This document shows positions 7,741 to 60,715 of a stretch of 64,000 bases of DNA, piece by piece. The stretch is taken from the NCBI GenBank assembly GCA_963710425.1, contig CAVQAR010000024.1, positions 229,042-293,041 on the forward strand. The letters are read 5' to 3'. The DNA comes from an uncultured delta proteobacterium. Its GTDB lineage: Bacteria > Desulfobacterota > Binatia > Binatales > Binataceae. The first letter of the stretch is position 1. Each line of letters starts with the position of its first letter. Made by a program: the position numbers and the translations under genes. A model generated the notes under the pieces. That model was not told the DNA's origin. It searched no databases and worked only from the letters and a program-made list of their open reading frames with translations.

Positions 7741-8358
7741 TTGCGCTCCATCGGAAAAGCCGGTGGCGAAGATGCCTTGTAACAGACTCTTAAATCAGAC
7801 CATCGCGGATGAATTCAATCGGTCGCGACCGTGCTGGATGGATTTCGTTTGCTGGACCGGCAAAATGGCGAGATTCTTTGCGATCGAAAAGAGGCGAAAG
7901 AGCGATTTCATACTATAGGTTGTGGTTATGAGATGCGCTGACCACTGCCGGTAGCTTCGTTCCGTCAAAAGTTGTTTTTGTTGGAAGTTGAGGTCGGCGT
8001 GCCTCGTGCGGGAGCGGGGCGAGCTTGCGGCATCTTGAGTGATGGTGCATACCACAGTGCTAGCACGGATATTGAAGGAGGTTCAGGCTTAAAAGTTCAT
8101 CCCCCCTCGAAGAGAGCAAAAGGTTTCCGGCGAGCCGAGTAAAAAGAATCGATCGGAGAGCTTTGAAATCGACGCTAACAACCTAACCTCTTCGCCGAGC
8201 GGGAAGGGGTACCGGAATGGGGAGAAGAGGCGGCATCTTGAATCGCGATTAGACGAGTTGGCAAACGGGCGTATCGGGCGTTGCCCCTCTCCTTCCAGGG
8301 AGAGGGGAAAAACGACAAGGTTGCGAATCGTCGCCGTTGAGCACAACTTATTGTCTGT

Positions 8359-11983: not shown

Positions 11984-12974
11984 GTGGCAGGTTCGGGCAA
12001 AACTCTCGATCGCATCTTGGCATCAGTGGGGCGGGCCGCCGTGCCCGCCCTCTTGATTTTGACTCTATCTGCAATGTTCGCCACCACCGCCCGCGCCGAA
12101 CCTCCCGTCGTCATAACCCCTCATCAAGAAGAAACCGATGCAGCCCTACGTCGCGCGCATCTACTTCGATGCGAAGGCAAAGGACGGCAGCGATTCCTAT
12201 TACGAGATTCTGAAAAACGACAAACCCGTTTACGTGCAGAAGGCAACGCGCAAGGGCGAGAAGTTTTTCATCGGCACGATGTACAAAGACGATCCCGACG
12301 CGACCCTGGTCAAAATGGGGATGGACATCACCGGCGACGGGCAGCCGGACCTGGTCATCTCGGAATGGCTCGGCGGCGCGAATTGCTGCCTGACGCTTCA
12401 TATCTTCGAACTCGGCCCGACCTTCAAAAAACTCGGCACCATCGACGCCGGCTACGGCGACTCAGGCCCGCACTTTTTGAGTCCGCCCAAGGACTCGAAG
12501 GCCACCGGCGACGCGGTTCAGATTCACGACTGGACCTTTGCCAACTGGAACGCCGATTTCGCCGACTCGCCGGCGCCCAAAGTTATCCTGCGGTACAGCG
12601 ACAACGCCTACCGCATCGCGCCCGACCTGATGCGCGCGCCGCCGCCCTCTCCCACCGACCTCGCAACCCGCGCCAGCACAGTCAAGAACTACCCGCCGAG
12701 CGCCAAAGGCGGCGAATGGCCTCACGCACAAGTCTCCCCAGACCTCTGGAGCACAATGCTAGATCTGATCTACAGCGGCCACGCCGACGAAGCCTGGAAG
12801 TTCCTAGACGAAGCCTGGCCCCCGAAGATCACCGGCAAAGAAAAATTCGCGCGCGACTTCCGCACCCAACTATCCAAGAGCAAATACTGGCCCGCAGTAG
12901 AAGCAATGAATTCCGCCACAAAACCCCCAGCAAGCGCACAATCAGCAAGCCCGTCCTCCACCGCCACAAAGTAA
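11984..12974 (+). CDS. Secreted hypothetical protein; apparent frameshift near 12120; start uncertain
   Basis: Signal-peptide-like ...LLILTLSAMFATTARA|EP in one frame, continuing as ORF 12138-12974 (DITGDGQPDLV, GGANCC). Confidence 0.6.
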
Positions 12975-13006
12975 CCGCCCTGCTAGCGCCGCTGTCGCTC
13001 CTTATC

Positions 13007-13048
13007 TGGTTCCCCTTCCCGCGCGGGAAGGGGTTAGGGGTTAGGTTC
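13007..13048 (+). repeat. Family-A repeat, left arm of the perfect 42-bp inverted pair around DUF559
   Basis: TGGTTCCCCTTCCCGCGCGGGAAGGGGTTAGGGGTTAGGTTC. Confidence 0.95.
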
Positions 13049-13424
13049 CTAAGGTCTTCACCAGCGCCTGCCTGACAAGCTCGATCACCGCCTCGCTGTC
13101 GAGCATGGCTTCATTGGAAATCCTGATAACCCGCACTCCGATGCTCGAGATCGCTTTGTCACGCGACTCGTCATACTTCCACTGCTCTTGATGCACGCCG
13201 CCATCAAGTTCGATCGCAAGCTTGGCGGTATCGCAGTAGAAATCGACGACGTACCCTTCAACTATCTGCTGACGGCGGAAATGAAATCCTTCGACTCCGT
13301 TTCGCCGAAGACACTTCCAGAGAATGCGCTCGGCCGGGGTCATTTCGCGGCGCAATTGTTTGGCGAAAGACAGCTTGTCGGCCTGAACGCCTTGGACGCG
13401 AGTTATTTTACTGCCATGTGTCAT
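13041..13424 (-). CDS. DUF559 / Vsr-like endonuclease-domain protein (127 aa)
   Basis: AKQLRREMTPAERILW, FRRQ, YVVDFYC, IELDGGVH, D..RD, GVRVIRISN. Confidence 0.92.
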   Translation of the reverse strand: MTHGSKITRVQGVQADKLSFAKQLRREMTPAERILWKCLRRNGVEGFHFRRQQIVEGYVVDFYCDTAKLAIELDGGVHQEQWKYDESRDKAISSIGVRVIRISNEAMLDSEAVIELVRQALVKTLGT

Positions 13425-13445
13425 AAGCTGGTTGCTGCTGCCGAA

Positions 13446-13487
13446 GAACCTAACCCCTAACCCCTTCCCGCGCGGGAAGGGGAACCA
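13446..13487 (-). repeat. Family-A repeat, right arm of the inverted pair around DUF559
   Basis: Exact reverse complement of 13007-13048. Confidence 0.95.
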
Positions 13488-13545
13488 AAGACAGTCGCAC
13501 TCTGTCTCCCGCCTTCCCAAGGGAAAACTTATTGTAACTCTACAC

Positions 13546-14802
13546 CTAGGACACCTTCATCTTCACCGCCATCTCCTCAATCCTCCTCCGAATAAATCTC
13601 CGCTCAGGCGCACTCCCCACCCGCGCCAGCGCCGCGCGATACGACTCCGCCGCCTCCGCCCATCGCCCGAGCCGCCGCAATAAATCCGCGCGCGCCGACC
13701 ACATCAGGTAGTAATCTCGGAGCTCGCCACTAGCCGCGAGCGCATCGATCAATTCGAGTCCCACCGCCGGACCTTCAGCCATCGCAACTGCTACTGCTCG
13801 ATTCAACTCGATCACCGGCGACGGCCGTATCGCGTTAAGCCGCCGGTAAAGCTCCGCGATCGCGCGCCAGTCGGTCGCGGATGCGCTCTTCGCTCGCGAA
13901 TGAACCGCCGCAATCGCCGACTGAATCGCATACGGCCCGTTCGCATCCGCGTTGATTGCCGCCTCCGAATGAGCCAGCCCCTCGGCAATCTGCGCCCGAT
14001 CCCAACGCGCGCGATCCTGCTCCTCGAGCAACACGATCTCGCCGCGCTCGTCGATTCGCGTATCGCGCCGCGCGTCATGCAGCAGCATCATCGCGAGCAA
14101 TCCGCGCGGCTCCGGCTCGGTCGGCATCAGCGCTACCAGCATACGCGCGAGCCGAATCGCCTCCGCGCACAGGTCGGTTCTGAGCAGCCGCTCGCCTGAA
14201 CTCGCCGCGTAACCTTCGTTGAAGACCAGGTAGATAACCGCCATCACCGCGTCGAGCCGCTCCGCCAGCAACTCCGCCGACGGCACCTCGTACGGAATCC
14301 GCGCCGCGCGAATCTTGCGCTTGGCGCGCACCAGCCGTTGCGCCATCGTCGCCGGCGCCGTGAGGAACGCGCGCGCGATTTCCTCGGTCGTCAGCCCGCA
14401 CAGCGTGCGCAACGACAGCGCGACGCGCGCGTCGTCGGCCAGCGCCGGATGACAGCACGTGAAGATCAGCCGCAGCCGCTCGTCAGGCAGCGCACCCGCC
14501 CCGTCGATCTCTTCATCGTCGCCGCCAGCCTCAGCCATGCGGATCAGCTCCTCGCGGCGATCGTTGAAGCGAGTTTGTTTGCGTATTCGATCGATCGCCT
14601 TGTGCCGCGCGACGCCGATAATCCACGCGCGCGGATTCTCCGGCAGCCCGTCGCGATCCCACTGTTCGACCGCGCTCGCAAACGCCTCCTGCGCCGCGTC
14701 TTCCGCGAGATCGAAGTCGCCGAGCACGCGAATGAGCGTGGCGAGTATTCGCCCGAACTCCTCGCGATAGAAACGCTCGATACCGGCGGCAGTGTTGTCC
14801 AT
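13546..14802 (-). CDS. ECF sigma factor, ECF42-like, with C-terminal TPR extension
   Basis: [51 protein letters not shown]; adjacent to DGPF genes. Confidence 0.92.
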
Positions 14803-14899
14803 CGGCAAATGTAAAACCGTCCGATGGCAGGCTAGCCGCCCGCCGCCCATGCCGCTACCGGCTAAGCGGATAATGGGGCGGGCCGCCGTGCCCGCAGAC

Positions 14900-15688
14900 T
14901 CATTCGTGATAGACCCACCAGCATCCCTCGACCGGCCTGACTTCGATCGCATCGCCGTCACGCAGCGCCAGTTTGTTCGCCCACGTGATTGCCTCGTCGA
15001 TCGACGCGCACGCAATCAGGTTGAAGCCGCCGGCAACTTCCTTGGTCTCCGCGAACGGCCCGTCCGTCACCATCCGCCCGCCATTTTTCCATCGAATCGT
15101 CTTCGCCTGCTTCGAAACTTCCAGCCGCGCGCCCACCCACAACCCGGGTTCCTGATCGAGCATCGCGCGACTCGCGACGTATTCGGCGCCGACGCTTTGA
15201 TGCTGCCGCATAATCTTTGTCCGCTCGCTCTCCGGCAGACTAAGCGCCGCGCGTTCGTCCTCGACCGAAGTGAGCATGAAAATCTTCGACGCCAATTGCC
15301 CGCTAGTCTGCGAGATCCACCAGAACTCGCGAATCGGCCGCACTTCCATGACGAGACTCTCATGCGCACCCGGATATTTCGCGTACTCGATCGCCTCTTC
15401 GAGCGACTCGAAATCGATTATGTCGAACCCTCCGACCAGCTCCTTCGTCTCAGGGAACGGCCCATCGATCCGCAGATGCTCGCCGCCGCGATTCTTCACC
15501 GTGACCGTCTCGCGCTCGCGCCCGAGCCCCACAGAAACGCTTATCAGCCCACTCCTTCCGCTGCGCAGGCGCGAACGCAGCAGTTCGTCGAGTTTCTGCT
15601 GATGGAACCGGACGCGCCGATTTATTTCCTCGGCGTCGATACTTTCCGACTCTCCGCGCATCTCTCCGCCCGTGAGCATGTACTTCAT
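14900..15688 (-). CDS. Tandem two-domain YCII/DGPF protein
   Basis: Two DGPF(P/A)ETKE..GG motifs, each followed by EVRP. Confidence 0.85.
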
Positions 15689-15710
15689 CGCGATTCCCCT
15701 CGCGCGCCGG

Positions 15711-16064
15711 CTACATATTGATCTTCATCACCGGCCGCACTTCGGTCGATCCGTACTTCGACGACGGAATCCGCGCCGCAATCGAAATCGCCTCGTCGAT
15801 ATCTTTCGCCTCGACCAGCACGTATCCGCCCAACTGCTCCTTGGTCTCCGCGAACGGCCCATCCGTGACCATCGTTTTGCCATCGCGCACGCGGACAGTC
15901 GCCGCCGTTTTGGTAAAATCGAGCGGCCCGCCCGCCTTCCGATGCCCACTCTTCACGACACTCTGCGTAAACGCCGCAAACTCCGAGAAAATTTGCTGCT
16001 TCTCGTTCTCCGACCGCCCCAACGCCTCTTTCTCGTTGTGATAAATCAACAGCATGTATTCCAT
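15711..16064 (-). CDS. YCII/DGPF protein
   Basis: [15 protein letters not shown]...EVRP. Confidence 0.92.
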   Translation of the reverse strand: MEYMLLIYHNEKEALGRSENEKQQIFSEFAAFTQSVVKSGHRKAGGPLDFTKTAATVRVRDGKTMVTDGPFAETKEQLGGYVLVEAKDIDEAISIAARIPSSKYGSTEVRPVMKINM

Positions 16065-16091
16065 GGCGTTCTCCAAAATATCCAAAAATCC

Positions 16092-16132
16092 GGTTCCCCT
16101 TCCCGCGCGGGAAGGGGTTAGGGGTTAGGTTC
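16092..16132 (+). repeat. Family-A repeat, identical to the DUF559 arms
   Basis: GGTTCCCCTTCCCGCGCGGGAAGGGGTTAGGGGTTAGGTTC between two DGPF genes. Confidence 0.95.
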
Positions 16133-16144
16133 CCCAGCTTCGCG

Positions 16145-16498
16145 CTACATATTGATCTTCATAATTGGCCGCACTTCGATCGACCCGTGCTTCGCCCCCG
16201 GAATCCGCGCCGCAATCGAAATCGCCTCATCGAGATCCTTCGCCTCGACGATGTAATATCCACCAAGCTGCTCCTTGGTCTCCGCGAACGGCCCGTCAGT
16301 CACCACCGTCTTGCCATTGCGCACGCGCACCGTAGTCGCCGTCGTGGACTGCTCGAGCGGCGCCCCTCCCTTATTTTTTCCGCTCTTCGTCAGGTCCTGC
16401 GTAAAGGTGTGATACTCCTGGAAAATCTGATGTCCCTCCGCAGGCGACATCTTCTTTCCATCCGCCTCGCTGCTGTAAATCAAAAGCATGTATTCCAT
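16145..16498 (-). CDS. YCII/DGPF protein
   Basis: [15 protein letters not shown]...EVRP; AAGGAG SD; paralog of 15711-16064. Confidence 0.92.
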   Translation of the reverse strand: MEYMLLIYSSEADGKKMSPAEGHQIFQEYHTFTQDLTKSGKNKGGAPLEQSTTATTVRVRNGKTVVTDGPFAETKEQLGGYYIVEAKDLDEAISIAARIPGAKHGSIEVRPIMKINM

Positions 16499-16549
16499 AC
16501 ACGTATCTCCTTGATGCCCGGTTTGGGTTTCAACTCTTTCACTTATGTA

Positions 16550-16577
16550 GTCGAACAGCCCACAGGCCAGATCGACA
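16550..16577 (-). promoter_or_regulatory. Putative ECF42-dependent promoter
   Basis: The minus strand reads TGTCGA-N18-CGAC about 50 bp upstream of the first DGPF gene, resembling the ECF42 consensus (TGTCGA / CGA/TC). Confidence 0.7.
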
Positions 16578-16595
16578 GCTATGTAAAATAACATC

Positions 16596-16635
16596 TGTTC
16601 CCCTCTCCAGAAGGGAGAGGGGCTAGGGGAGAGGT
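16596..16635 (+). repeat. Family-A variant B repeat (other copies at 17642-17682, 25526-25566, 26867-26906, and 48301-48338 on the minus strand)
   Basis: GTTCCCCTCTCCAGAAGGGAGAGGGG(C/T)TAGGGGAGAGG recurring. Confidence 0.9.
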
Positions 16636-16662
16636 GATCGCAAGCTCTACAATTTTGGAATC

Positions 16663-17487
16663 TTAAGGACCGACTCCCCCAGGTTGCAGCCACGTCTGCG
16701 CCGCCAGGTATTCCTGAACTTGCGCGATGTAGTCCAGCGCCCCCGAATCGAACCAATGCCCCGAGTACCACCATCCGACGCATCCCCACATCATTTCTTC
16801 AGGACTGCCCTCGGGATAGGCGGGGTGTCCGTAGGACGGCGTATCGGACGCCAGGTATGCGATTTTTCCCTCGAAACACGCGCGCTGCTGCGCCAGCTTG
16901 TAGTCCGCCGCAAACGCAGTGCTGAGATACGAATAGCAATCCGGATTCGTAACATCCGCAGCATTCTGGCTCGTCGCTACCGACTTACAGGTGGACGGGT
17001 AATCGCTTGATTTGATTTGCAGGATTCCCAGGCTCATCCCGTTGCCAATATCGCCTATCTCGGTCTGTCTCCAATGAGTCTCGTTGACCGCGGTGGCTCG
17101 CGTCACGTTCTCGTCGAAGCCCCACTTGCATGAAGCCCACTTGAGAATCGCGTCGGTGGTACCGGTAAACTTCCCATCGACGCGCATCAGGTAACTCCCC
17201 GGCGCGCCGCCTTCGCCTGCGGCTGCTTCAGACTTGTACGTCGCGAGGTCGGAAGCGCTCGGCATGAACTCGTTCTCCGGCGAGTTCTTAGGCACCGGCT
17301 CAAACGCATCGCCCGAAGCGCCCGCCGCGCACGTTTTATCTGACGGTAGCTTCGATCCCGCCGCCAACAATGAATACTGATGCTCCCCAGCCGAAGACCG
17401 GCCCATCGCAACCGCAATCGCGATCGCGCAAACCCCGAGCTTGGCGGCGTTCGAGATCCCGTGCCAACTTCCACGATCCCATCTCAT
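16663..17487 (-). CDS. Secreted lysozyme-like / lytic transglycosylase-like protein
   Basis: Signal peptide; RATAVNETHW (candidate catalytic Glu) and SLGILQIK resemble SLT motifs I and II; six Cys in the mature part. Confidence 0.55.
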   Translation of the reverse strand: MRWDRGSWHGISNAAKLGVCAIAIAVAMGRSSAGEHQYSLLAAGSKLPSDKTCAAGASGDAFEPVPKNSPENEFMPSASDLATYKSEAAAGEGGAPGSYLMRVDGKFTGTTDAILKWASCKWGFDENVTRATAVNETHWRQTEIGDIGNGMSLGILQIKSSDYPSTCKSVATSQNAADVTNPDCYSYLSTAFAADYKLAQQRACFEGKIAYLASDTPSYGHPAYPEGSPEEMMWGCVGWWYSGHWFDSGALDYIAQVQEYLAAQTWLQPGGVGP

Positions 17488-17734
17488 TTTAGAGTCATCC
17501 TTACAACAATTCTTTCGAGGTCAGTGGGGTTCTTCGATCGGCTCAGCGCACGCCCCCGTTAGACGATTTGAAACGAAATGAAATTCGCGCCTCAGGTCAC
17601 CGGGGCCGCGAATTATTGAAAGGATTACAGCCCGAAAATTCTGGTTCCCCTCTCCAGAAGGGAGAGGGGCTAGGGGAGAGGTCGTTTACACCAACATCAA
17701 AAACCGCCACGATCACCTTCGCCCCATCTACGCC

Positions 17735-19086
17735 ATGAACGATCCACAAGTAACCGTCGTCGGAGCCGGACTCGCCGGCAGCGAAGCCGCATGGCAACTC
17801 GCGCGCCGACGCATCCGCGTCCGTCTCATCGAGATGCGCCCGGTCAAAATGACCGAAGCTCACCGTACTTCTGACTTCGCGGAACTCGTCTGCTCGAATT
17901 CGCTGCGCAACGATTCGATAGACACCGCGGTCGGCGTCCTCAAACAAGAAATGCGCCGCCTCGACTCGCTCGTTATCGCGTCCGCCGATCGCGCGCGCGT
18001 CCCCGCCGGCTCCGCCCTCGCCGTCGATCGCAATGACTTCTCTCGCAGTATCACCGCCGCCCTCGAAGCACATCCGATGGTCGAAATTGCGCGCGCCGAA
18101 GCATGTGAGATTCCGCGCGGTCTGACAATTCTCGCCACCGGTCCGCTGACCAGTCCTGCGCTCGGCGAGTCGCTGAATAATCTGATCGGTCCGCGCAACT
18201 TGTATTTCTACGACGCGATCGCGCCCATCGTCGCCCGCGATTCCGTCGACATGAGCGTCGCCTTCATGGCCTCGCGCTACGGCAAGGGCGGCGACGACTA
18301 CATCAACTGCCCGATGACCGAGATTCAGTACGAACGAGTTCATCGCCGCGGTGATGGCGTGCTGAAAAGATCGAACTGCACCCATTTGAAAAACCGGTCT
18401 ATTTCGAAGGATGCATGCCGATCGAGGAGATGGCGCGACGTGGCCCGATGACCCTCGCCTTCGGCCCGATGCGCCCGGTCGGGCTCTCAGAGCCACGCAG
18501 CGGCCGCCGGCCCTTTGCCGTAGTGCAGCTCAGACAGGACGACGCCGCTGCCCATCTCTACAACATGGTCGGCTTCCAGACCAAGATGACCTATCCCGAT
18601 CAGCGCCGCGTGCTGCGAATGATTCCCGGCCTCGAGCACGCCGAGTTCGTCCGCCTCGGCTCGATCCATCGCAACACCTTCGTCGATTCGCCGCGCCTGC
18701 TCCGCCCGACGCTCCAACTCAAAACCCGCGACGATCTGTTTCTCAGCGGCCAGATGGTCGGGGTCGAAGGCTACGTCGAATCCGCGTCCGCCGGATTGCT
18801 CGCCGGAATCAACGCCGCGAACCTCCTGATGAATCGCGAACTCGTCGTGCCGCCGCCCGAGACCGCGCTCGGCTCATTGATTGCCTACATCACCGATTCA
18901 ACTCGCCGCGATTTTCAGCCGATGAACGCGAACTACGGCTTGATGCCCGACTTGAAAATCCGCGCGCGCGGTCGCGAGAAAAAAGTCGAGATGGGCATTC
19001 GCGCGCTCTCGGCTATCGACGATTGGATCCAGCGCGAACAGATCGGACCGCCTGCATCTATGGCGTTGTCCGAAGTTCGGCTATAG
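17735..19086 (+). CDS. trmFO: tRNA (uracil-5)-methyltransferase TrmFO; apparent frameshifts about 18335-18365
   Basis: [57 protein letters not shown]. Confidence 0.95.
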
Positions 19087-25493: not shown

Positions 25494-25683
25494 CCGCCAC
25501 GCTCGTCTTCAAATCTCTGTAATTCTGGTTCCCCTCTCCAGAAGGGAGAGGGGTTAGGGGAGAGGTCCGCACTGGAAATGCGCCGTCAGTGTGGTAGTAA
25601 GGTAATCGCCAGCGCGTACGCGCGTCGATTTTTTCCTCGCGCGCATGCAGCCAACACTATCGCACACTCAAGGAGCACTCAGG

Positions 25684-26769: not shown

Positions 26770-26958
26770 TGTCGCGTCTCACAAAAAGGCTACCCATTCT
26801 GTTCCCCCTTTCCCGCGGGAAAGGGGGTGACGGCGATAGGACGGAGCGGAATAGTCCTTCCACCTCCGGTTCCCCTCTCCAGAAGGGAGAGGGGCTAGGG
26901 GAGAGGGTCCGCGCAACTAGCGCATTTGATTCGCTAAAAAGAAATAGAGGCTAAAACA

Positions 26959-28103: not shown

Positions 28104-28463
28104 TCAAAATACCGCTGTACTTAAAATTTCTGGTCCCCCTTCATCGGAAGGCCGCGGGCACGGCGGCCCGCGCCACTGCACTGCGGCTCGAGGTGCTTTC
28201 AAAGCTGCTAGATTCGGCTGATTTAGTGGCGCGGGCGGCCCTGCCCGCGGCTCCTTCCCTCCACCGCCCTGAGAGCAAAGTAGCGCGCTGCGCGCAACTT
28301 TGCGTTTCTCACTTTCTCACTGGGTGCAGGGGTCACCCCTGCCGCCCGCCGCGCAGGCGATTATTTCTTTGCGTTATTTTCATCGCCACTTTCTTTGTAG
28401 GGGTAGGTTCCATTTCCCTTCACCCCAAATAATCGCAATCATTACCCCCGGAGGCTCCCCCCA

Positions 28464-29144: not shown

Positions 29145-29310
29145 CTCCGTCTTTGTGTGATTCCTTTCCTCACCTCGCCCGTTATTTTCACGGGAGAGGC
29201 GGGCCGGCGGGCGTAGCCGCCGGTAGGTGAGGGTCATGCGACGCATGATGCAAATACGGTAGGTCGCCACTGCTCATTTCTGCCGTTTTTTTCTTTGCGT
29301 TAACTCTCTT

Positions 29311-29533
29311 TGTGTCATCCTGAGCGGAGTCTGCGCAGCGAAGGATCTCGCGCGTCTGCGCGCGCTGTGGTGGCAGGCGCCGGACGCCGGAGTGTCCGTC
29401 GAGATTCTTCGCCGCAGCGGCTCAGAATGACACAAAAAGTGAGCAGGCTAACTTTTCTGATGTGATCGAAGAACCCTCACCTACCGGCCGCGATGCGTCC
29501 GGCCGCCTCCCCCGTAAAAATAACGGGAGAGGT
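29311..29533 (+). repeat. Composite F+G repeat module (direct copy at 38468-38690)
   Basis: TGTGTCATCCTGAGCG...CTCAGAATGACACA long hairpin followed by ACCCTCACCTACCGGCC...TAACGGG.GAGGT. Confidence 0.9.
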
Positions 29534-30651: not shown

Positions 30652-30912
30652 GCGAGCAACCTAACCCCTAACCCCTTCCCATAGTGGGAAGGGGAACCGG
30701 ATTTTGAGGCAACTATTCCGCCCGTCCTATCCCCCTCACCCCCTTTCCCGCGGGAAAGGGGGAACAGAACGGATAACCAAGACATTGACCCCGGATTGAC
30801 AGAAGAAAAGAACCTTCGAGCAAAATGGCGTCCGCGCCATTTTTGCGATTGACACTGGGTGCAGGGGTCACCCCTGCCGAAGGAGGTGTGGAACCCACCG
30901 CGGGTTCCACAT
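30652..30912 (+). repeat. Composite A-C-H-E repeat module (inverted copy about 35100-35407; shorter A-H-E copy at 37321-37487)
   Basis: About 115 bp of near-identity to the reverse complement of 35292-35407, plus shared AAATGGCGTCC.CGCCATTT and CTGGGTGCAGGGGTCACCCCTGC blocks. Confidence 0.88.
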
Positions 30913-32836: not shown

Positions 32837-33116
32837 GTGAAACGTCGATCGCAAAATCTTAAGTAGCTGATTTTATTGAATAATCGTACCAAAATGTTTC
32901 ACGTGAAACGTCGCAGTCGGTGAAACAACTTCTTTCCCTTTCACTGGGTGCAGAGGGGTCACCCCTGCTTTCACATGAAACGTCGATCGCAAAATCTTAA
33001 GTACCTGATTTTATTGAGTAATCGCATCAAAATGTTTCACGTGAAACGTCCCTACTCGGTAAAACAAACTCCCCTTTCACTGGGTGCAGGGGTCACCCCT
33101 GCTTTCACGTGAAACG
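32829..33116. promoter_or_regulatory. Array of five parS sites in a tandem duplication
   Basis: 16-mers starting at 32829, 32895, 32967 (GCTTTCACATGAAACG), 33033 and 33101. Confidence 0.9.
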
Positions 33117-35005: not shown

Positions 35006-35422
35006 AGCGAGCAGCGATTATTGCCCGCCTCGATGCTCCCGCGCAAAGCGCGCGCTACACACTGTTGTACAAATTACTATCCTACAGTAGAAGACACAAA
35101 TTGTATGTGAAACCCGCGATGGGTTTCACGCTTCCTTCGGCAGGGGTGACCCCTGCACCCAGTGATAAGAAATCGCGAAATGGCGAGGACGCCATTTCGC
35201 TCAACACCAATAATCCGGTCCCCTTTCCCGCTCGGGAAGGGGTTAGAGGGGTAGGTTGTCCTCATCATCCGCAACGCACTCTCCCAACAATCTGTTCCCC
35301 CTTTCCCACGGGAAAGGGGGTGAGGGGGATAGGACGCGGCGGAATAGTTGTCTCAAATCCGGTTCCCCTTCCCACTATGGGAAGGGGTTAGGGGTTAGGT
35401 TGCTCGCGACGGTCGCCGCTCA

Positions 35423-36813: not shown

Positions 36814-37039
36814 ACGAGAAACGTAATTGTAGCGAAACCCACCGTCTGATTCCCTCGCCCCACGTGGGGAGAGGGTTAGGGTGAGGGACCTTGTGCGGCG
36901 CGATTGTTCGTTGCGCCGCACATCCGGAATCTCGGAAATTTGGTCCCTCACCCGCCGCGCTCGGAAGCGCGTCGACCTCTCCCCTCGTGGGGCGAGGCAA
37001 GATCTTGCGGGCTCGCTTCAATATCGCGATAAGCATCTG

Positions 37040-37333
37040 GTGAAGCTCAGAGATCTCTCGGCGCGATTGTTGGCGGGCTGGATCCTCCTCGCGCCCTCGA
37101 TCGATTGTGCGCGGCGGGGGTTGCAGCGGGAGACGCCGTTGTCGGAATGGGAGCGTGGGGACCATTTTTCGTCGCGCGAGAGTTGCGAGAGTTATCGGGC
37201 GACGGTGATCGATGCGGAGAAGAACGATAGCGAGAACATTTATGTCGAGCGGTATTCGTATTCGATTTGCGTGCAGGATGATGACCCGCGATTGAAAGGG
37301 ATTAGTGGTGGCGGCGAGCGACCTAACCCCTAA
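37040..37333 (+). CDS. Small hypothetical protein (two-Cys core); stop codon lies inside a family-A repeat
   Basis: GWILLAP...PLSEW...FSSRESCE...CVQDDDPRLKG; plausible coding composition. Confidence 0.5.
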   Translation: MKLRDLSARLLAGWILLAPSIDCARRGLQRETPLSEWERGDHFSSRESCESYRATVIDAEKNDSENIYVERYSYSICVQDDDPRLKGISGGGERPNP

Positions 37334-37625
37334 CCCCTTCCCATAGTGGGAAGGGGAACCGGATTTATTAAGTGAGAGCGAAATGGCGTCCTCGCCATTT
37401 CGCGATTAGTACTTTTCACTGGGTGCAGGGGTCACCACTGCCGGGGAAGCGTGAAACCCGCGGAGGGTTTCACATTCAATCAAGTTCTCCCTTCCGCGGG
37501 CTCGATGGTGCTTGCTCAATGGCGCGCGGTATGGTTCGATTGCGTGTTCGGGGTCGATTAGATACCCGACCTACTAACCGACCTTTTCGGTCGGAATTCA
37601 AACACCGAGTGAAACGCCCCGATCA

Positions 37626-38168: not shown

Positions 38169-38440
38169 CGCTGGCAAATACATCGGATCGTTTGAAAGCT
38201 GCGCCGCGATACGTCGGTGTCGGTATCGTCGCGATTTATCGCGCGGCGGTTTCGCCGGTGATTCATGCGATGAATGGGCCGGCGTGTCGGTTTGAGCCGA
38301 GTTGCTCGGTGTATGCGCGCGATGCGATCGCGGAGTACGGGATTGTCCGCGGCGTTATCATGGCGATTTGGAGAGTTGCGCGGTGCAATCCGATCGGTGG
38401 GCATGGGTTTGATCCGGTGCACGGGCGTGGTTCGCGATGA
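38165..38440 (+). CDS. yidD: Membrane protein insertion efficiency factor YidD
   Basis: CRFEPSCSVY, RVARCNP, GFDPV. Confidence 0.95.
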   Translation: MTLANTSDRLKAAPRYVGVGIVAIYRAAVSPVIHAMNGPACRFEPSCSVYARDAIAEYGIVRGVIMAIWRVARCNPIGGHGFDPVHGRGSR

Positions 38441-38740
38441 AGCGGAATTGCAACTCGCTTTTTTCTTTGTGTCATCCTGAGCGGAGTCTGCGCAGCGAAG
38501 GATCTCGCGCGTCTGCGCGCGTCGCCAGCGCCGGACGCCGGAGCGTCCGTCGAGATTCTTCGCTTCAGCAGCTTTCGCTCAGAATGACACAAAAAAGTGA
38601 GCGCTCGTGCATCGCGCATGCGTCGGCTGCACCCTCACCTACCGGCCGCGATGCGGCCGGCCGCCTCTCCCGTAAAATAACGGGCGAGGTATTTGGAGCG
38701 CACGGACTGCGCGCGCAAGAGCTGAGAACAGGGAACTAAG

Positions 38741-47858: not shown

Positions 47859-48301
47859 AACGCGGCGGCGTCAAGCGGTGGCGGCGACGATTGCGCGCCG
47901 CGCTGGGGCGGTCGCATCCGGCACAGGCGATGGCTGAGTTCGCGCTGGTGATCACGCCGTGCCTGGCGCTGTTCTTCGGGATAATCAACTTCGCGCTGGC
48001 GCTCTATTGCTACGACTTCGTCTGTTACAGCGCGCAGCAGGCAGTTCGCTACGCGACGGTGCACGGCTCGACCGCGACGACTATCGTGTCTTCGACCGAT
48101 GTTACGAATTACGTGCACACTCTTGTCGTCGGCGTGCTGAACACGAGTTCGATGACCGTCACGACGACCTGGACTCCCAACAACAAGCCCGGCGGCATAG
48201 TTACCGTGAACGTCAGCTACAATTTCCCGCCGCTGACGAACCTGGTTTCGTCGGTGACAATCCCGCTCACGCGCACCGCCGCGATGGTGATTACGCAGTA
48301 A
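47855..48301 (+). CDS. TadE-family pseudopilin
   Basis: A|QAMAEFALV, AVRYATVHG; ATGA overlap with the upstream gene. Confidence 0.88.
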   Translation: MKRGGVKRWRRRLRAALGRSHPAQAMAEFALVITPCLALFFGIINFALALYCYDFVCYSAQQAVRYATVHGSTATTIVSSTDVTNYVHTLVVGVLNTSSMTVTTTWTPNNKPGGIVTVNVSYNFPPLTNLVSSVTIPLTRTAAMVITQ

Positions 48302-48345
48302 CCTCTCCCCTAACCCCTCTCCCTTCTGGAGAGGGGAATAAGAGT

Positions 48346-60645: not shown

Positions 60646-60672
60646 ACCAGACCGGGGGTGCAAAAGTTAGAA

Positions 60673-60715
60673 GAACCTAACCCCTTACCCCTTCCCGAGC
60701 GGGAAGGGGAACCGG
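60673..60715 (-). repeat. Family-A repeat between convergent mutS2 and asmA-like genes
   Basis: GAACCTAACCCCTTACCCCTTCCCGAGCGGGAAGGGGAACCGG. Confidence 0.9.

Follow-up and report, generated by a model that had tools for sequence, protein, structure and literature searches.

A DUF559 nuclease gene framed by inverted triplex-motif repeats: a candidate selfish cassette in an uncultured delta proteobacterium

Introduction

Why should a small endonuclease gene lie between two exact inverted copies of a short repeat that is itself scattered through the surrounding DNA? The question is raised by a locus at 13007-13487 of a 64,000-nucleotide (nt) stretch from an uncultured delta proteobacterium of the Binataceae (contig C24:229042-293041 of a 4.31-Mb assembly, 65% complete; the whole stretch is hereafter the window), where a gene of the DUF559 family is enclosed by two hairpin-forming arms. 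In REP/REPIN systems with RAYT proteins, too, inverted copies of a short hairpin repeat frame one or a few genes, the repeat itself being scattered through the genome tens to hundreds of times. A first-pass annotation, made from the letters of the window alone, proposed a RAYT/REPIN-like system using a Vsr-like nuclease. Here, we report that the arms are copies of the element known as BoxC, PIT, or the "intrastrand triplex motif" (TM) and have the same sequence as dispersed solo and doublet copies, that gene and arms behave as one unit in inheritance, gain, loss, and exchange, and that each nuclease clade keeps its own TM subtype. We lean, by a modest measure, towards reading the locus as a selfish nuclease cassette bounded by inverted TMs, with an enzyme that acts on its own repeat type.

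Both components were known, and their link is what is new; we found no description of it in searches of open-access papers and bioRxiv preprints. BoxC/PIT motifs have been known in Escherichia coli since the 1990s, without a known origin or function. Among 1.84 billion proteins, DUF559 has 21,910 cluster representatives at E ≤ 0.001, or 8,838 at E ≤ 1e-10, which makes it a very large family; the link gives each of the two components a candidate partner. The first-pass annotation called DUF559 a domain of unknown function, which stands insofar as the family has no agreed role and fails insofar as two relatives, I-Bth0305I and VsrA, have already been characterized.

Results

The gene and its arms form a compact cassette

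The cassette has the following parts, with positions counted in the window.

13007 to 13487, no strand assigned: whole cassette (arm, DUF559 gene, inverted arm), 481 nt, with a perfect 42-nt inverted repeat
13007 to 13048, plus strand: left arm, a type-1 TM with outer GGTT, hairpin at 13012-13033, TTA linker, and tail GGGGTTAGG at 13037-13045
13041 to 13424, minus strand: DUF559 (Vsr-like PD-(D/E)XK) gene, 127 amino acids (aa) plus TAA stop, Pfam PF04480
13446 to 13487, minus strand: right arm, identical to the left arm in inverted orientation, 21 nt upstream of the ATG

The first-pass annotation had described this architecture correctly: the 42-nt arms (13007-13048 and 13446-13487) show 100% complementarity and enclose 397 nt, the open reading frame (ORF; minus strand, 13044-13424) encodes 127 aa counted from an ATG at 13424, its TAA stop (13041-13043) falls within the left arm, and the G-rich tails point to the gene. 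From the outer end to the gene side, each arm reads GGTT, a hairpin of CCCCTTCCC-GCGC-GGGAAGGGG, a TTA linker, the tail GGGGTTAGG, and TT. Folded as single-stranded DNA, the left arm gave a 9-bp hairpin of -10.1 kcal/mol (z -3.0), and its 22-nt hairpin core occurs five times in the window with up to 3 mismatches, compared with 0.00 expected from 100 shuffles. The N-terminus of a paralogue on contig C34 matches from the methionine of the cassette ATG (MT.xSKIT), and the sequence preceding it differs; because the similarity begins at that methionine, the ATG is the likely start. The gene frame is open back through the upstream arm (..GKGLGVR..) in three cassettes (window 13424-13520, C34, and C24:185k), being the sole one of the three frames without a stop in the tail. 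Since the copies are related, this may be a matter of descent and not of function.

The protein matched Pfam DUF559 (PF04480), the family originally assigned, with an E value of 8.1e-33 (113 bits against a cut-off of 20.6) over residues 18-121, corresponding to profile positions 4-108 of 109, and a family search found no transposase domain in it. Across 12 aligned relatives, residues D61, E72, H78, and D85 never vary, and all but one have D74; the EDxHD/Vsr catalytic pattern (E-x-D ... H ... D) is kept, with the equivalence to Vsr taken from PMC3239194 and not from superposition. A profile search matched PDB 3hrl ("endonuclease-like protein") at E 1.9e-36 and PDB 3r3p, the catalytic domain of I-Bth0305I, at E 2.9e-6, identifying an EDxHD Vsr-like domain. 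On the equivalog model for E. coli YcjD (NCBIfam PRK09767), the protein scored 75.9 bits against a cut-off of 218; the two are members of one family in separate orthologous groups. A defense-system library returned weak hits only (the best being PADLOC 'HEase', E 2.9e-5), and a reading as a defense gene was not adopted.

The ratio of nonsynonymous to synonymous substitution (dN/dS) is 0.123 between the cassette gene and its C34 paralogue, and 0.125 between the orthologous C34 cassettes of this genome (G000; further genomes are numbered likewise) and G043, whose genes are identical at 355/397 positions (89.4%; dS 0.30). These low ratios indicate that the protein is held by purifying selection. 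In the same C34/G043 pair, where the flanking genes show 86-93.5% identity, both arms match at 43/43 positions including the loops (86/86 together), held or homogenized much more tightly than silent sites. As a separate observation, the cassette on contig C20 (G000:C20:100240-100551) carries a glycine at the near-invariant aspartate D74 (window numbering), and its nuclease may be inactive.

The arms are a subtype of TM

BoxC of E. coli was rediscovered as the "potential intrastrand triplex" (PIT) and later named TM (PMC4666352); the literature on it includes Bachellier, Hoyne and Maher (2000, 2002), and Holder et al. (2015; PMC4666352). The main text of PMC4666352 gives the E. coli consensus as CCCTCNCCC N3-6 GGGNGAGGG N3 GGGNGAGGG and reports 23 copies in MG1655, all intergenic, with the motif in >260 genomes, a stable triplex formed in vitro by the single strand, and hypervariable surroundings among strains. 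It also states that a mobility function near the motif was never found, and the words "endonuclease" and "Vsr" occur 0 times in it.

In the genome studied here, the element is built of a C/G hairpin and a G-rich tail. The tail repeats the purine arm in mirror order, A being faced by A or T, in three subtypes of the window (types 1 to 3). The type-1 TM (CCCCTTCCC GCGC GGGAAGGGG TTA GGGGTTAGG) has 0 stem mismatches and 1 mirror-block mismatch, and four types were distinguished:

Type 1: purine arm GGGAAGGGG, tail GGGGTTAGG
Type 2: purine arm GGAGAGGGG, tail GGGGAGAGG
Type 3: purine arm GGAAAGGGGG, tail GGGGGATAGG
Type 4: purine arm GGGAGAGGG, tail GGGTGAGGG

The mirror-tail rule holds for at least seven asymmetric stem variants at DUF559 loci. 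The cassette arms have the build of a TM, with a hairpin whose 5' arm is rich in pyrimidines and whose 3' arm is rich in purines, a short linker, and the mirror block; they do not fit the E. coli consensus, from which their stem CCCCTTCCC differs, and we regard them as a sister subtype. Type-4 copies do fit that consensus, including its conserved G.A stem mismatch (CCCTCGCCC vs GGGAGAGGG). An example is window 36852-36888 (CCCTCGCCCC..GGGGAGAGGG TTA GGGTGAGGG), and the nine genome matches to the 3' two-thirds of the consensus are type-4 copies. Like the published TM, the elements here combine a C-rich/G-rich hairpin of 9-11 bp with a 3-nt linker and a third, G-rich block in which the purine arm is mirrored (G.G:C, A.A:T, and T.A:T triads). 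Both solos and inverted pairs are found, dispersed in hypervariable surroundings and, in a single genome comparison (this genome against G043), outside conserved blocks. The link to a nuclease gene is the element that differs.

DUF559 genes are framed by inverted TMs in this genome, the genus, and other phyla

An nhmmer profile built from a first regex harvest detected 221 non-overlapping repeat copies in this genome (E < 0.01), and the type-1 arm-plus-tail string occurs in 131 copies at up to 2 mismatches, with 0 for a reversed-pattern control. The main loops of 109 strict type-1 copies are GCTC (57), ACTAT (16), GCGC (13), TCGA (9), and ACCAT (7). All seven DUF559 hits with both flanks are framed by inverted TMs with their tails inward, and an eighth, truncated where its contig ends, shows a TM at the 3' side, the only one visible. 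Type-1 arms enclose the window cassette and the copies at C34 and C24:6, and type-2 arms the copy at C24:185k. Around the C20 copy, a type-1 variant lies within an outer type-3 pair, and the copies on C29, C22, and C25 have type-4 arms with an extra inner hairpin. Seen from the side of the repeats, the nhmmer census contains four adjacent inward pairs <700 nt apart, all of which enclose DUF559 genes, and among 27 inverted-repeat pairs detected genome-wide by BLAST, all 5 TM pairs with a 340-410-nt gap do so. Wider TM pairs enclose ordinary genes, IS481-family elements, or one ORF without a family hit.

Two further observations concern type-1 copies. An inward type-1 pair, 741 nt apart, encloses a 200-aa ORF without a Pfam family (G000:C17:56335-57198), which could be a different cargo or a chance pair. 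An identical IS481-family element begins directly after the type-1 tail (...GGTTAGG, then TGTCGGGTTGC...) at C34:59713, C26:1368, C23:62572, and C28:24228, as if it targeted the TM; these transposases carry rve, rve_3, and LZ_Tnp_IS481 domains.

The framing was then scored against 600 random 315-nt segments, whose flanking inverted repeats averaged 20.6 and peaked at 43, with the 99th percentile at 30. In this genome, 6 of 7 DUF559 loci score >43 (range 34 to 133). Elsewhere in the genus, 20 of the 28 best-scoring loci exceed 43 and 23 exceed 30, as do 37 and 39, respectively, of 40 further, lower-scoring loci, so that 57/68 surpass every random control; in the second set, the motif finder calls tails inward at 33/40. 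Genus arms reach 40-120 nt, including a second covarying hairpin between stem and tail. DUF559 is present in 42/47 genus genomes, with 0 to 21 matches each (41/45 without the unpublished G040 and G041).

Other phyla were represented by the best 80 of 590 confirmed relatives in species genomes, 74 of them with enough flank. Among these, 47/74 loci score >43 and 58/74 score >30, so that DUF559 loci are framed more strongly than random segments well beyond the genus, in line with the layout first proposed of a nuclease gene between inverted dispersed repeats. Nearly all of the aligned arms are C/G hairpins with a GGGTGAGGG-like tail. The loci come from Armatimonadota, Chloroflexota, Planctomycetota, Cyanobacteria, Margulisiibacteriota, Saganbacteria, Myxococcota, Acidobacteriota, Bacteroidota, and Alpha- and Gammaproteobacteria, where the framed proteins are only ~40-50% identical; the closest among the best 80 of 590 are in metagenome-assembled genomes titled uncultured delta proteobacterium or Candidatus Binataceae. 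The motif finder called 40 of the 74 loci inward, 4 outward (~4 more by eye), 12 direct, 13 one-sided, and 5 without motifs. Around 70 other-phyla loci, 81 TMs with stems of at least 8 nt lie upstream and 78 downstream within ~260 nt, compared with 0 and 4, respectively, at a distance of 390-700 nt.

Single cases illustrate the range. In Pseudomonas paralcaligenes MRCP1333, the TM type of this organism occurs 40 times (control 0), and two of the 40 copies flank one small DUF559 gene; Methylomonas fluvii has nine TM copies, five of them within 4 kb of its single DUF559 gene; Noviluteimonas caseinilytica has a DUF559 gene framed by TMs; and on plasmid pAQ6 of Picosynechococcus PCC 7002, the gene lies among CCCCC-loop-GGGGG-NNN-GGGGG motifs. 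Only 16 of 72,556 plasmid records hold a relative, several of these being multi-megabase and chromosome-like, and the cassette is mainly chromosomal. In a study of predicted programmed-inversion targets, "DUF559 domain-containing protein" is enriched 14.3-fold and "endonuclease domain-containing protein" 9.6-fold (PMC9881135), an independent sign that DUF559 genes lie by inverted repeats.

In E. coli, ycjD (NC_000913 1351407-1351760, minus strand) is a DUF559 gene, and motif no. 9 of Holder et al. (1351204-1351239) lies ~170 nt downstream of it. A degenerate TM-like hairpin overlaps the 3' end of ycjD, and the upstream side has only the sapF terminator hairpin. According to Table 1 of PMC4666352, four of the five inverted motif pairs in MG1655 face inward, with 16-27-nt spacers; on our reading of that table, these pairs are the cassette layout minus the gene. 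As a side observation, the ycjD locus (K-12, NC_000913 1350251-1352634), with its TM beside the gene, differs among lineages: some E. coli lineages carry the eefRABCD efflux operon between fabI and sapF, and lineages without eef have ycjD in its place, with loss inferred at least twice (PMC12817139).

TM type follows the nuclease clade

A tree of 69 DUF559 proteins of the genus was built from 105 columns (IQ-TREE quick; rows with internal stops excluded; many forks unresolved), and protein clades match TM types. TM type (T1, T2, T2b, or T4) changes 4 times over 56 rows, whereas 300 shuffles of the labels averaged 24.4 changes and never fell below 18; ten rows with other types, two with none, and one mixed were left uncounted. 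Repeat subtype does covary with nuclease phylogeny, a point that the first-pass annotation had suggested testing. Among sampled cassettes, 11 of 29 genomes carry at least two TM types, which indicates that TM type follows the protein and not the host. Loop form behaves similarly within type 1, with 5 changes against 8.8 in shuffles (minimum 6), for the 15 cassettes with one loop in both arms among 27 with both arms called. Because related rows share labels by descent, these counts speak for co-inheritance of gene and arms and not by themselves for co-adaptation.

These data bear on whether the gene is a passenger. Inverted TM pairs might arise unaided and capture or shield whatever short gene lies between them, e.g., by acting as a stabilizing or silencing RNA stem, and DUF559 would then bear no specific relation to them; a read-through transcript of the whole unit would pair the arms in a 45-bp stem, and the pair on C17 described above encloses an ORF without a family hit. 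We consider this account very improbable, given that every tightly framed insert in the genome (gap 340-410 nt) is DUF559, that the pairing recurs in many phyla with proteins as divergent as those above, and that TM type goes with protein clade.

Cassettes turn over as units at orthologous sites

When 2.4 kb around the locus was used as a query, cassettes in 19 other genus genomes matched from query position 896/906 to 1386/1390, that is, from arm end to arm end, at 73-86% identity and in other chromosomal places. The similarity stops at the arm ends, within a few bases of their outer limits, so the 481-nt unit proposed by the first-pass annotation is indeed discrete.

The orthologous site of the cassette is found in several states. 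G056, G007, and G047 have no repeat there at all, and these are the empty sites for which the first-pass annotation had suggested looking. In G001 and G016, at most 31 nt separate the flanking matches; G043 (flanks 91-93% identical) and G035 have a solo at the place and in the orientation of the left arm, with other loops (ACTAT, GCTC); and G051 has a decayed gene piece and the right arm, the piece being 87% identical, like the flanks. At the C24:185k site, this genome carries a 595-nt block of TM(-), 50 nt, TM(+), gene, TM(-), 32 nt, and TM(+), where G011, with flanks 92-94% identical, is empty (GCGCGA-AATA-GTGCCG); the comparison reveals no duplication and ~5 nt lost. At the C34 site, G043 has the orthologous cassette, G056 the right arm only, and G046 a cassette of another lineage (73% identical, with other loops) in the opposite orientation. 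G051 has a cassette of the G046-type lineage there with the middle of the gene deleted, ~12 first codons being joined to ~35 last ones and ~200 nt remaining between the arms. More broadly, intergenic differences between window 8286-41482 and G043 are largely gain, loss, and replacement of TMs and other repeats.

Decay to a solo or doublet does occur at single sites. However, 104 of 105 type-1 solos show no trace of an adjoining cassette interior, so most solos are not random decay products, and the idea that solos are in general decayed cassettes was rejected. An orthologous solo near the C34/G043 cassette differs by a whole-loop swap (GAGC vs ATAGT); together with the small number of discrete loop forms, this suggests conversion between copies.

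Three side observations concern local multiplication. G047 holds 21 DUF559 matches, including a tandem pair at 94%. Two of its cassettes, 97.3% identical over 637 nt and 6.3 kb apart, bracket ~5.7 kb like a composite element. In G056 (C2:1503743-1504424), the 3' part of a cassette and its arm form three tandem 227-nt repeats.

Such turnover is difficult to reconcile with a host role, in which a housekeeping Vsr-like nuclease would serve repair or structure processing, such as very-short-patch repair as proposed for Caulobacter VsrA or the removal of hairpin or triplex obstacles, with the repeats regulatory or incidental. The Vsr fold and catalytic residues and the purifying selection on the gene are in keeping with such a role. 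So is the precedent of VsrA, a DUF559 protein functionally tied to a cytosine methylase: it is SOS-induced and required for the SOS response of a cytosine-methylase mutant (PMC12907096), from which it follows that a DUF559 protein damages DNA in vivo. The cassette gene shares fold and catalytic residues with VsrA, which is active on DNA in vivo; it differs from Vsr genes, typically single-copy and linked to a cytosine methylase, in being multi-copy, polymorphic for insertion, and framed by repeats. A host function also leaves the 0 to 21 copies per genome within one genus, the presence and absence at orthologous sites, the lineage replacement, the decayed and internally deleted copies, and the co-diversification of arms and protein to be explained, and no methylase gene adjoins the cassette (unlinked methylases were not searched for). 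We regard it as improbable.

TM abundance and DUF559 tend to occur together

Co-occurrence was examined in 150 genomes of the phylum, each at least 90% complete, of which 141 were counted after nine with weak or partial hits had been set aside. Of the 40 genomes with a strong DUF559 hit, 28 reached the threshold of at least 3 copies of the motif GGGNGAGGGNNNGGGNGAGGG, net of its reversed control, as did 16 of the 101 without a hit, an odds ratio of 12.4, and within the genus, type-1 copies correlate with DUF559 matches at a Spearman rho of 0.64 (n = 47, including two unpublished), figures that are overstated because related genomes are not independent. Repeat abundance does depend on the presence of DUF559, as the first-pass annotation would have it. 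In passing, weak DUF559-like domains (E 1e-6 to 1e-8) were seen inside 1200-1900-aa open frames (e.g., G137:C1:508241, G121:C1:1063201, and G186:C150:8275), so fused nuclease-domain forms exist; fused and weak hits were set aside in the count.

The strongest competitor, which we nonetheless hold to be rather unlikely, is that DUF559 acts by homing only. TMs would have spread by some other route, and the gene would be a free-standing homing-type gene that lands on TM doublets or solos; pre-existing TMs would also supply homology for its copying, and solos would not be mobilized by DUF559. Gene-less inward doublets of the kind expected as targets do exist (window 36850-37000, and the four of five pairs in MG1655; PMC4666352), one chromosomal site is taken up by a solo in certain genomes and elsewhere by a cassette of one or the other of two lineages, in either orientation, some genomes have many TMs and no DUF559, and the closest characterized relative is a homing endonuclease. 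Homing alone leaves unexplained the sharp ends of the ~45-nt solos and their 100-200 copies, as well as the tight partition of TM subtypes by nuclease clade within single genomes. What resembles a doublet in G051 is demonstrably a cassette with an internal deletion, not an untouched target. Nor was another candidate mobilizing enzyme seen: Y1_Tnp (PF01797) had no hit at E ≤ 0.001 in this genome (65% complete).

Discussion

How an enzyme acting on its own repeats might have produced this pattern can be outlined as follows. The nuclease would recognize its own TM type, either as a single-stranded hairpin or triplex or as duplex, and cut there, and repair from another TM-bearing copy would homogenize the repeats. 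Where a cassette served as the repair template, the gene would be copied in, and since each arm is the inverse of the other, it could enter in either orientation, which fits the two orientations found at one site. Gene-less doublets would arise by internal deletion, and solos would be non-autonomous copies that need the nuclease in trans, a few of them being cassette relics. Error-prone repair would account for the instability around TMs.

Several observations weigh against a selfish nuclease that acts on its own repeats. That the nuclease contacts, cuts, and mobilizes the TM is something we infer. The protein, at ~120 aa, has no separate DNA-binding domain, unlike I-Bth0305I; duplex TM gave no triplex signal in vitro or by in vivo dimethyl sulfate (DMS) footprinting, and earlier work cited in the same paper found TMs without promoter or terminator activity (PMC4666352). 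A promoter scan found no promoter-like sites in or beside the cassette. Copy numbers and cassettes do not always agree: this genome has three type-4 cassettes with nine type-4 pattern copies, compared with 131 type-1 copies for three to four cassettes; 12 DUF559-negative genomes have at least five motif copies (G091: 28); G048 (85% complete) and G040 have 57 and 26 type-1 copies, respectively, and no DUF559; G031 and G010 have type-1-like cassettes yet only five copies; and the tested pattern is absent from nine DUF559-positive genomes. In E. coli, ycjD lacks a frame, with the motif on one side only. In the other phyla, direct-repeat scores exceed 43 in 27/74 loci. This score was rejected as an internal null, because a hairpin is its own reverse complement and TMs cluster, and random segments and distal flanks were used in its place.

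The junctions also belong here. No target-site duplication is visible at the cassette, in agreement with the first-pass annotation, or at two other filled/unfilled sites, and junctions are imprecise (~5 nt lost at one site, 8 nt replaced at another), so that no transposition chemistry can be read from them. At the same time, ragged junctions without duplication fit repair-based copying better than transposase chemistry.

The system can be placed among known ones as a likeness and not as a member. With REP/RAYT systems, it shares the framing of a gene by inverted dispersed hairpin repeats, a repeat subtype matched to protein lineage, the lack of target duplication, and intergenic, non-coding positions. 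It differs in its enzyme, a ~120-aa PD-(D/E)XK Vsr-like nuclease instead of an HUH/Y1 transposase, in the mirror-symmetric third block that REPs lack, in that dispersed TMs are mostly solos and not doublets, and in that cassettes of several subtypes coexist in one genome. The RAYT/REPIN likeness proposed at first pass therefore holds for the layout; membership was rejected, the framed gene being DUF559 and PF01797 without a hit in this genome (65% complete).

The EDxHD homing endonucleases share a homologous Vsr-like catalytic domain (I-Bth0305I, PDB 3r3p; PMC3239194), and the likeness may extend to a selfish gene that spreads by cutting and by copying during repair. I-Bth0305I combines this domain with an N-terminal DNA-binding (NUMOD/helix-turn-helix) region, resides in a group I intron, cuts a fully paired coding target leaving a two-base 5' overhang, and has an activity linked to dimerization; free-standing EDxHD family members are mentioned as well (PMC3239194). 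The cassette protein is, by comparison, a bare nuclease domain without intron or intein, framed by structured repeats. Insertion sequences and miniature inverted-repeat transposable elements (MITEs) resemble the cassette in having terminal inverted repeats around a single gene, internally deleted gene-less derivatives, and many short non-autonomous copies. The cassette differs from them in having no DDE, HUH, serine, or tyrosine transposase and no target-site duplication seen, and its commonest derivative is a single end (solo) and not a two-ended MITE.

A wider proposal, that DUF559 nucleases are the missing partner of BoxC/PIT repeats and together with them form a pan-bacterial mobile class without transposase or integrase, we put forward tentatively, as somewhat short of probable. 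In such a class, a bare Vsr-like nuclease would recognize and cut a structured, mirror-symmetric motif, and host repair would carry the motif, and at times the gene, to new places. If true, it would explain the conservation of the motif across phyla, the pairing of subtype with clade, and the instability of DNA around the motif; it would suggest a source for the genome instability reported around TMs and provide a repeat-plus-nuclease system that parallels REP/RAYT with another enzyme and another DNA structure. The link also bears on the annotation of DUF559 genes and TMs and on "programmed inversion" predictions that flag DUF559.

Repeat copies in the window and other observations

The cassette gene sits between two other genes, a 278-aa ORF without a family hit and a gene for an extracytoplasmic function (ECF)-type sigma factor, and interrupts neither. 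A terminator scan found one terminator-like site inside the ORF, at chance level, and Rfam gave no family match in window 12000-18000 at E ≤ 1. The first-pass annotation listed 19 repeat positions in the window, and a hairpin of the TM kind is present at all 19; the nhmmer census (E < 0.01) recovers 17, missing 8284 (a hairpin without a tail) and 36850 (another subtype, found by the motif finder). The copy listed at 16092 is identical to the arm over 42 nt (13008-13049 vs 16092-16133), as had been noted. Apart from the cassette arms, the window holds the following copies; those marked H were found both as a hairpin and by nhmmer.

8182 to 8214, minus strand: degenerate type-1-like copy (nhmmer E 4.5e-4) (H)
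16091 to 16133, plus strand: solo type-1, loop GCGC, 42 nt identical to the arm; the orthologous place in G043 has a type-4 long repeat (H)
16595 to 16637, plus strand: solo type-2 (CCCCTCTCC AGAA GGGAGAGGGG CTA GGGGAGAGG), decayed in G043 (H)
17641 to 17683, plus strand: solo type-2; an unrelated repeat element is there in G043 (H)
25525 to 25567, plus strand: solo type-2 (H)
26799 to 26828, plus strand: type-3-like hairpin with a degenerate tail (nhmmer E 0.0068) (H)
26866 to 26910, plus strand: solo type-2 (H)
29172 to 29533, no strand assigned: two long type-4 arms in inverted orientation, each with a hairpin, an inner hairpin, and a GGTGAGGG tail, flanking another palindromic element, without DUF559
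30655 to 30700, minus strand: solo type-1, loop ATAGT, adjoining a type-3 copy (H)
30729 to 30767, minus strand: solo type-3 (CCCCCTTTCC..GGAAAGGGGG TGA GGGGGATAGG) (H)
35215 to 35258, plus strand: solo type-1 variant (H)
35292 to 35330, plus strand: solo type-3 (H)
35359 to 35404, plus strand: solo type-1, loop ACTAT, after the type-3 copy at 35292 (H)
36850 to 37000, no strand assigned: gene-less doublet of a type-4 copy with a second hairpin and, directly after it, an inverted type-4 copy, tails inward; the cassette layout minus the ORF
37318 to 37362, minus strand: solo type-1, loop ATAGT, truncated in G043 (H)
48297 to 48341, minus strand: solo type-2 (H)
60671 to 60715, minus strand: solo type-1, loop GAGC (H)

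At least two other dispersed palindromic repeat families occupy intergenic regions of the window (29306-29439, 38400-38560, 28250-28400, 33060-33100, and 35160-35200). One contains GTGTCATCCTGAGCG..GAAGGATC and the other CACTGGGTGCAGGGGTCACCCCTGC together with GAGCAAAATGGCG, and both swap with TMs at orthologous sites in G043. A third repeat family (GTAGGACGGAATTTATTCCGTC...) is present at one site in G043 and G046.

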